This document shows positions 47,216 to 47,341 of a stretch of DNA of 64,000 nucleotides, piece by piece. The notes beneath the pieces were generated by a model. The model ran no database searches. It was not told the DNA's origin and worked only from the letters and a program-made list of their open reading frames with translations. The stretch is from IMG/VR virus record IMGVR_UViG_3300042901_002340. The stretch is one strand, 5' to 3'. Source of the stretch: a virus. Its lineage: Duplodnaviria; Heunggongvirae; Uroviricota; Caudoviricetes. Positions within the stretch are counted from its first letter, which is position 1. Each line of letters opens with the position of its first letter. A program made the position numbers and the translations under genes.

Positions 47216-47341
47216 TGGGGAAGGGTGGATTCGAACCACCTATTATAACATATGAAATTAATTTTATCCTTCGAAGTAACTCAAAATCTTACTACTTATC
47301 AAAGAGAACATTGATCAGAGTGTCTTTTTTGTTGCTTCCCC
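47216..47341 (-). ncRNA. Y-RNA-like element D (tRNA acceptor and T arm at ends, conserved helix as internal hairpin)
   Basis: ggggaag/cttcccc acceptor, ggtgg-ttcgaat-ccacc T arm; contains AAGTAGTAAG...GTTACTTCG and ACACT...TTCTCTT motifs shared with 55576-56020. Confidence 0.6.

Follow-up and report, generated by a model that had tools for sequence, protein, structure and literature searches.

A conserved inside-out Y-like RNA with tRNA-like ends near the Ro60 gene of a large tailed phage

Layout of the element at the end of the tRNA block

We analyzed a window of 64,000 nucleotides (nt) from the tailed-phage record IMGVR_UViG_3300042901_002340 (Caudoviricetes); the whole virus record comprises 430,120 bp with direct terminal repeats. 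The window contains 26 transfer RNA (tRNA) genes called by ARAGORN, all on the minus strand and spanning 47430–63475, and on the same strand a gene (rsr, 52562–54142) for a TROVE protein of 526 amino acids (Pfam TROVE, E = 8e-11). This phage Ro60/Rsr protein, which matches the Ro60 of Thermus phage phiLo over its full length (PDB 9KOP/9L5Y, E = 5.5e-19), is the putative partner of the RNA described here. Upstream of the Ro60 gene lies an array (55567–56020, minus strand) of three linear-handle Y-like RNAs, namely C (56020–55891), A (55879–55717) and B (55705–55567). The element under study is an inside-out RNA of ~126 nt (47341–47216, minus strand) at the far end of the tRNA block downstream of the Ro60 gene. 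It is located 5.2 kb downstream of rsr on the same strand, between tRNA-Asp (47506–47430) and a hairpin with a T-run (46996–46964) that, as read from the sequence, ends the tRNA operon. This operon end is hypervariable, and homing endonuclease genes lie beside the element. No sigma-70-type promoter was called upstream of the element by a consensus scan that also missed the evident terminator at 46964–46996.

From its 5΄ end, the element begins with the acceptor-stem strand GGGGAAG (47335–47341, with U at –1), which forms seven of seven possible Watson–Crick pairs with CTTCCCC at 47217–47223. A 13-nt A-rich single-stranded linker (47322–47334) takes the place of the D arm; in relatives this linker starts with UAGC and resembles a remnant of the start of a D stem. 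The handle follows as ACACUC..UUCUCUU, in which the 3΄-type strand (ACUC..UUCUCUU, 47302–47321) comes first and, like its counterpart in linear handles, forms a lower, a middle and a top helix. It is joined by the closing tetraloop UGAU (47298–47301; GNRA in most relatives) to the 5΄-type strand AAG(U)AGUAAG..GAGUUACUUCGAAGG (47268–47297), which carries a bulged U and a CGAA-type motif. Written as DNA, the handle strings at the site are ACACTC..TTCTCTT, the loop TGAT and AAGTAGTAAG..GAGTTACTTCG. Next come a 27-nt AT-rich spacer in the variable-arm position (47241–47267), whose length and sequence differ among homologs, a canonical T arm (GGTGG-TTCGAAT-CCACC, 47224–47240), and the acceptor 3΄ strand CUUCCCC with the discriminator A73 (47216) and an encoded C74 (47215), together occupying 47215–47223. 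Neither a D arm nor an anticodon arm is present in the element. The first-pass annotation of this DNA had described two swapped helix strands closed by a tetraloop, between ends that form a perfect 7-bp acceptor stem and a T arm with no D arm; the strings are present as it quoted them, and the layout and its coordinates agree exactly from G1 to N73.

Conservation, covariation and circular permutation

In relatives of the phage, we looked for handles with a T arm on their downstream side and an acceptor complement on their upstream side; the inside-out layout emerged in L004, L006, L008, L009, L012 and, with three copies, L010. When viral contigs were scanned with a layout-specific pattern, L030 and L031 joined the set, and two matches were chance occurrences in coding sequence; a second viral pattern scan yielded no further contigs. 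With a layout-specific DNA pattern, one metagenome scan recovered 20 more loci, bringing the running total to 27 distinct sequences. These homologs occur in phages whose Rsr proteins are only 39–77% identical.

The first-pass annotation had made its reading depend on a significant covariance-model match. A model (R2) built from eight relatives, from which the window copy and its 95%-identical relative were left out, gave a full-length match at 47341–47211 with 93.5 bits (E = 4e-22), and the element thus passes that test. The second-best match in the window scored 27.6 bits and was an out-of-phase reading of the array. Unguided folding of seven sequences with RNAalifold returned the acceptor stem, the handle hairpin and the T arm, with compensatory changes in 12 of 25 pairs. 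In the alignment of the 27 distinct homologs, pairing is kept in 97.7% of cells, and both sides have changed in 18 of the 25 pairs, with compensatory changes in all four helices; the acceptor helix is 100% paired (6/7 pairs covary) and the T arm 98.4% paired (3/5 pairs covary). None of 500 shuffles reached the pairing values of the homologs, and slid controls gave 29–53% pairing. In the leave-out set, MAFFT placed the acceptor strand wrongly, and we therefore used a model-guided alignment, which is tilted toward the model structure; this is a minor concern, because RNAalifold arrived at the structure independently and the margin is large. At the level of comparative sequence analysis, these results confirm the element as a real, conserved small RNA gene, an observation far beyond chance.

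We then compared the handle with those of the small RNAs found around the Ro60 gene in relatives fetched via the Ro60 protein. These RNAs share a 5΄ strand consisting of RGURGURA, 2–14 nt and GUUACNUCG, and a complementary 3΄ strand that ends in UUCYCU(U/G). The window element satisfies this lineage pattern, with RGURGURA-N-GUUACNUCG, a complementary YCYCU(U/G) strand and the bulged U. An nhmmer profile of the handle 5΄ strand, constructed from 24 linear handles of other phages (the window and its two closest relatives were left out), gave 47270–47298 as its top match in the 64-kb window (E = 2e-5); array elements B and A ranked next, and all remaining matches had E > 0.1. The strict 5΄ motif occurs at three sites in the 430-kb genome (A, B and the inside-out site) and at none in a reversed control. 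A profile of the handle 3΄ strand alone, from five sequences, was not significant (E = 20).

When linear handles were joined in silico as 3΄ strand-GAAA-5΄ strand, they folded like the natural inside-out hairpins, with a shared lower stem, middle stem, internal loop and top helix with a bulged U. This modeling therefore indicates that the circular permutation of the linear handle is real, as the first-pass annotation had claimed, and RNAalifold found the acceptor stem, T arm and handle hairpin unaided. The linear-handle Y-like RNAs of the lineage (A, B and C, and 24 in relatives) have the same handle strands, helix architecture, bulged U and GUUACUUCG as the element, which in its acceptor and T-arm sequences closely resembles element A. 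In contrast to these RNAs, the strand order of the element is swapped, and the tRNA module, not the handle, sets its ends. The element likely arose when an A-type element was duplicated in tandem and an out-of-phase unit was retained; the D arm would have been lost afterward.

The array itself displays related features. Element A gives a sub-threshold match to the Rfam YrlA model (33.8 bits). In elements A and B (55879–55567, minus strand), 7-bp acceptor stems are followed by an encoded ACCA or GCCA and a short linker; these acceptor ends are good RNase P sites, as in the YrlA of Mycobacterium smegmatis, and cuts at the acceptor loops would therefore free inside-out-type pieces. Inside handle element C (56020–55891), ARAGORN calls a 'tRNA-Gln(UUG)' at 55919–55992 (minus strand), which may be cargo of a Y-like RNA and not a decoding tRNA.

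Linkage to Ro60, tRNA-like ends and competing explanations

Our pattern scans were blind to the rsr protein. Nevertheless, all 16 assessable loci among the 20 found in the metagenome encode an Rsr homolog (51–63% identity, or 58–63% except for one short end fragment), and the other four have too little or no sequence beyond the RNA. In the metagenome loci, rsr is usually located a few hundred bases to ~1 kb downstream of the RNA on the same strand, and in the one new complete viral genome that the pattern turned up, the 172-kb genome that contains L031, it lies 2.75 kb downstream of the inside-out RNA. Handle RNAs cluster around rsr in every locus examined. In addition, UUCGAAGG in the handle fits six of the seven positions of the YrlA motif GNCGAAN0-1G, of which only UCG is invariant across homologs. 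In phage phiLo, Ro60 binds Y-like RNAs whose genes lie upstream of the Ro60 gene, and it engages the host PNPase (PMC12135203). Gene linkage and the CGAA-type motif thus suggest that the element most likely binds the phage Ro60 via its handle. The first-pass annotation had called it a Ro60-binding RNA; its linkage and motif agree with that proposal. Among the metagenome contigs, L044, L045, L046, L047, L048, L054, L057 and L059 carry two tandem inside-out RNAs just upstream of rsr.

A different protein might recognize the handle of a real, tRNA-processed RNA that works independently of Ro60. This possibility draws on the fact that Ro60 binding is deduced from linkage only, that UUCGAAGG fits just 6/7 positions of the YrlA motif and that no Rfam Y-RNA family matches the element. 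We regard it as rather unlikely, however, in view of the 16 of 16 assessable loci that contain Rsr although rsr was not used to find them, the clustering of handle RNAs around rsr, and the binding of neighboring Y-like RNAs by the phiLo protein (PMC12135203).

The ends of the element resemble those of the phage tRNA genes. Its window copy has U at –1 and ends in A73-C74-AAA, so that the full CCA is not encoded. Likewise, all 26 tRNA genes of the window encode C74 and continue from N73-C74 into an A-rich trailer; 15 of them continue with CAA after N73, and only tRNA-Asp encodes CCA. Of the 27 distinct homologs, all have C74, 21 have U at –1, 19 have A and 7 have G as the discriminator, and 5 encode the full CCA. 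In L031, 4 nt separate tRNA-Pro from the start of the RNA, and 2 nt separate the end of the RNA from tRNA-Gly. The genome also contains a gene for a PolyA_pol-family nucleotidyltransferase (G000:C1:37712-38128, 72.6 bits). RNase P and CCA-adding enzymes accept acceptor/T-arm minihelices. Because of this substrate range and a mycobacterial precedent, tRNA-like processing is the best-supported step that we infer for the element. [quoted passage not shown] Maturation by these two enzymes, as suggested by the first-pass annotation, thus accords well with the acceptor stem, the U at –1 in 21/27 sequences, the A73-C74-AAA end, the tight packing between tRNA genes and the PolyA_pol gene.

Taken together, the element is probably a circularly permuted Y-like RNA that would be cut out by tRNA-processing enzymes and would bind the phage Ro60. 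It would be co-transcribed with tRNA block 1, RNase P would cut its 5΄ end, and 3΄ trimming and completion of the CCA would give an RNA of ~129 nt. This RNA would then bind the phage Ro60 through its handle and offer its free tRNA-like 3΄ end to a factor that recognizes tRNA ends.

However, several observations weigh against this proposal. The minimum-energy fold of the window copy is a competing hairpin (–27.8 kcal/mol), which is 2.7–5 kcal/mol more stable than the homology structure (–22.6 to –25.1 kcal/mol); the closing loop of the handle hairpin in the window copy is not GNRA, and single-sequence folding is weak as evidence (z = –1.69). Without a D loop the RNA has no tRNA elbow, which may weaken recognition by RNase P. 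The window copy lies downstream of rsr, whereas most copies in relatives sit just upstream. Furthermore, no copy occurs anywhere in the genome of the closest complete relative (434 kb, Rsr 97% identical), so that the RNA is dispensable or interchangeable. In that relative, the corresponding site, which likewise follows the conserved 70-nt spacer, is occupied by a different handle RNA, which encloses a cloverleaf, and L004 has both the inside-out RNA and the handle-enclosed cloverleaf. A spacer of ~70 nt before a handle RNA is kept at 47425–47355 (minus strand) in the window, 14876–14945 in L003 and 17622–17686 in L004; the RNA after it is of the inside-out type in the window and a handle with cloverleaf in L003 and L004. 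In GenBank phages, megablast and blastn searches with the element gave no match. The nearest GenBank Rsr (38% identical, from an uncultured 635-kb phage) has no inside-out RNA within 15 kb, and no copy was found near more distant Ro60 genes.

Two homologs bear on which part of the tRNA-like module matters. In L012 (3587–3701) and L031 (2181–2299), the T arm is replaced by a 3-bp GNRA hairpin stacked on the acceptor stem. Both have dropped the T arm but retain the acceptor stem and an encoded CCA, which suggests that selection acts on the acceptor end and not on the T loop. It is accordingly conceivable, though on balance improbable, that the free acceptor/CCA end is the working part, and that the RNA is a Ro60-bound mimic of a tRNA 3΄ end that serves counter-defense. 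As a decoy, it would attract and soak up host defense toxins that modify or cut tRNA 3΄ ends; as a guide, it would couple Ro60-associated exonucleases and the phage nucleotidyltransferase, acting as the CCA-adding enzyme, to the repair of such ends. In keeping with this idea, the acceptor helix and the N73-C74 tail are the invariant tRNA-like features, and besides the two T-arm replacements it can call on the phage's own nucleotidyltransferase gene and on a Ro60-like phage protein that counters a defense system in Bas63 (10.1101/2024.10.10.617714). The argument is purely inferential, however, and no RtcB gene was found in the genome of this uncultured phage.

Aminoacylation would be a less likely version of a working acceptor end. 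An aminoacylated tRNA mimic that enters translation, as a substrate like transfer-messenger RNA (tmRNA) or of the minihelix type, could build on the 7-bp acceptor stem, the T arm, the discriminator base and a CCA that can be added, and tmRNA likewise has no normal D arm. Nonetheless, G3:U70 occurs in none of the 27 distinct sequences (20 have G-C and 7 have C-G), G–1 is not seen at the window copy, and an anticodon arm, tag reading frame and pseudoknots are lacking; ARAGORN calls no tmRNA, and the Rfam tmRNA model scores 7.3 bits. We therefore consider such a mimic very unlikely, and the description of the RNA as potentially chargeable in the first-pass annotation finds no support. Least likely of all is that the element has no function and is a tRNA gene in decay or a product of stray recombination within the array, for although the absence from the nearest complete relative, the hypervariable site beside homing endonuclease genes and the weak hairpin of the window copy would fit decay, this reading is strongly disfavored by compensatory changes in all four helices of 27 distinct homologs, which occur in phages with Rsr just 39–77% identical.

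Comparison with known RNAs and implications

YrlA is a Y RNA-like tRNA mimic of bacteria and phages (Rfam RF02553; PMC4201824; 10.1101/312249). The element is similar to YrlA in its same-strand position near a Ro60 ortholog (a few hundred bases to ~2.7 kb elsewhere, where measured) and in combining a handle that bears a CGAA-like motif with tRNA-derived acceptor and T-arm modules. In YrlA and in ordinary members of this phage lineage, the RNA ends pair as the protein-binding handle, and the acceptor stem of the tRNA-like domain is closed by a loop; in YrlA, this domain has T and D arms. In the element, by contrast, the ends do not pair as a Ro60-binding stem but form an acceptor/T-arm minihelix, and the handle lies inside the RNA as a hairpin that a tetraloop closes. 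It has a T arm but no D arm, and it consists of a single piece whose acceptor end is natively free. The Rfam YrlA model gave no match to the element at E-values up to 10, and no Rfam family accounts for it. The Ro60 of phiLo is the nearest solved homolog of the phage TROVE protein and binds Y-like RNAs beside its gene; its Yrl1 and Yrl2 are described with a 5΄–3΄ terminal stem, and a tRNA-ended form is not reported (PMC12135203).

In the mascRNA of MALAT1 and in tmRNA, the RNA ends are set by RNase P and CCA addition, both brought in by a tRNA-like module; the two ends of tmRNA pair into an acceptor/T-arm module that lacks a normal D arm. The element differs from both in that its cargo is a Ro60-type handle and that it has no alanine identity pair and no coding part. 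We rejected tmRNA as an assignment for want of G3:U70, a tag reading frame and pseudoknots, and likewise a tRNA with an intron, because no homolog has a D or an anticodon arm. The element is not a tRNA either: a cloverleaf with D and anticodon arms is absent, and neither ARAGORN nor the Rfam tRNA model calls it.

The Rfam Vault RNA model (RF00006) aligns to 47227–47280 (minus strand) with a score of 18.9 bits (E = 0.065 for 191 nt searched), below its gathering cut-off of 34, and the alignment covers only a 10-mer and the T-arm/box-B part. The handle invariant GUUACUUCGA (47270–47279) is identical to model positions 21–30 of the Rfam Vault RNA consensus, and eukaryotic vault RNAs, too, have GUUACUUCG(A) as their conserved 5΄ block. 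Vault RNA is a partner of TEP1, another TROVE-domain protein. The block shared by vault RNAs and handles may be a coincidence or a shared TROVE recognition element.

Three odd tRNA-like pieces lie downstream of the element, all within 47213–46998 (minus strand). The first comprises a 7-bp hairpin and a T-arm-like hairpin (47211–47169). The second (47168 to ~47080) displays acceptor-like pairing of GAUUGGU with AUUAAUC and a 4-bp T arm, and the distant phage L031 (3696–3755) conserves part of this unit at 83%. The third (47071–47002) is a sub-threshold tRNA with the anticodon CAU (27.7 bits) that is 97–99% conserved in L004 and L005.

Literature searches found no account of the inside-out form. 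The inside-out layout is a conserved and undescribed variant of the known Y-like RNA class, and it gives this class of Ro60-partner RNAs a free tRNA-like end. This finding bears on the role of the tRNA-like half of bacterial Y RNAs, since a phage lineage has fixed the opposite topology, with the handle closed and the acceptor end open, and compensatory mutation keeps this layout in 27 distinct sequences. It points to the acceptor end as a selected feature and offers a compact single-piece RNA in which the role of that end can be tested. In addition, it illustrates how tRNA-processing enzymes might serve phages to free non-tRNA cargo from tRNA operons.
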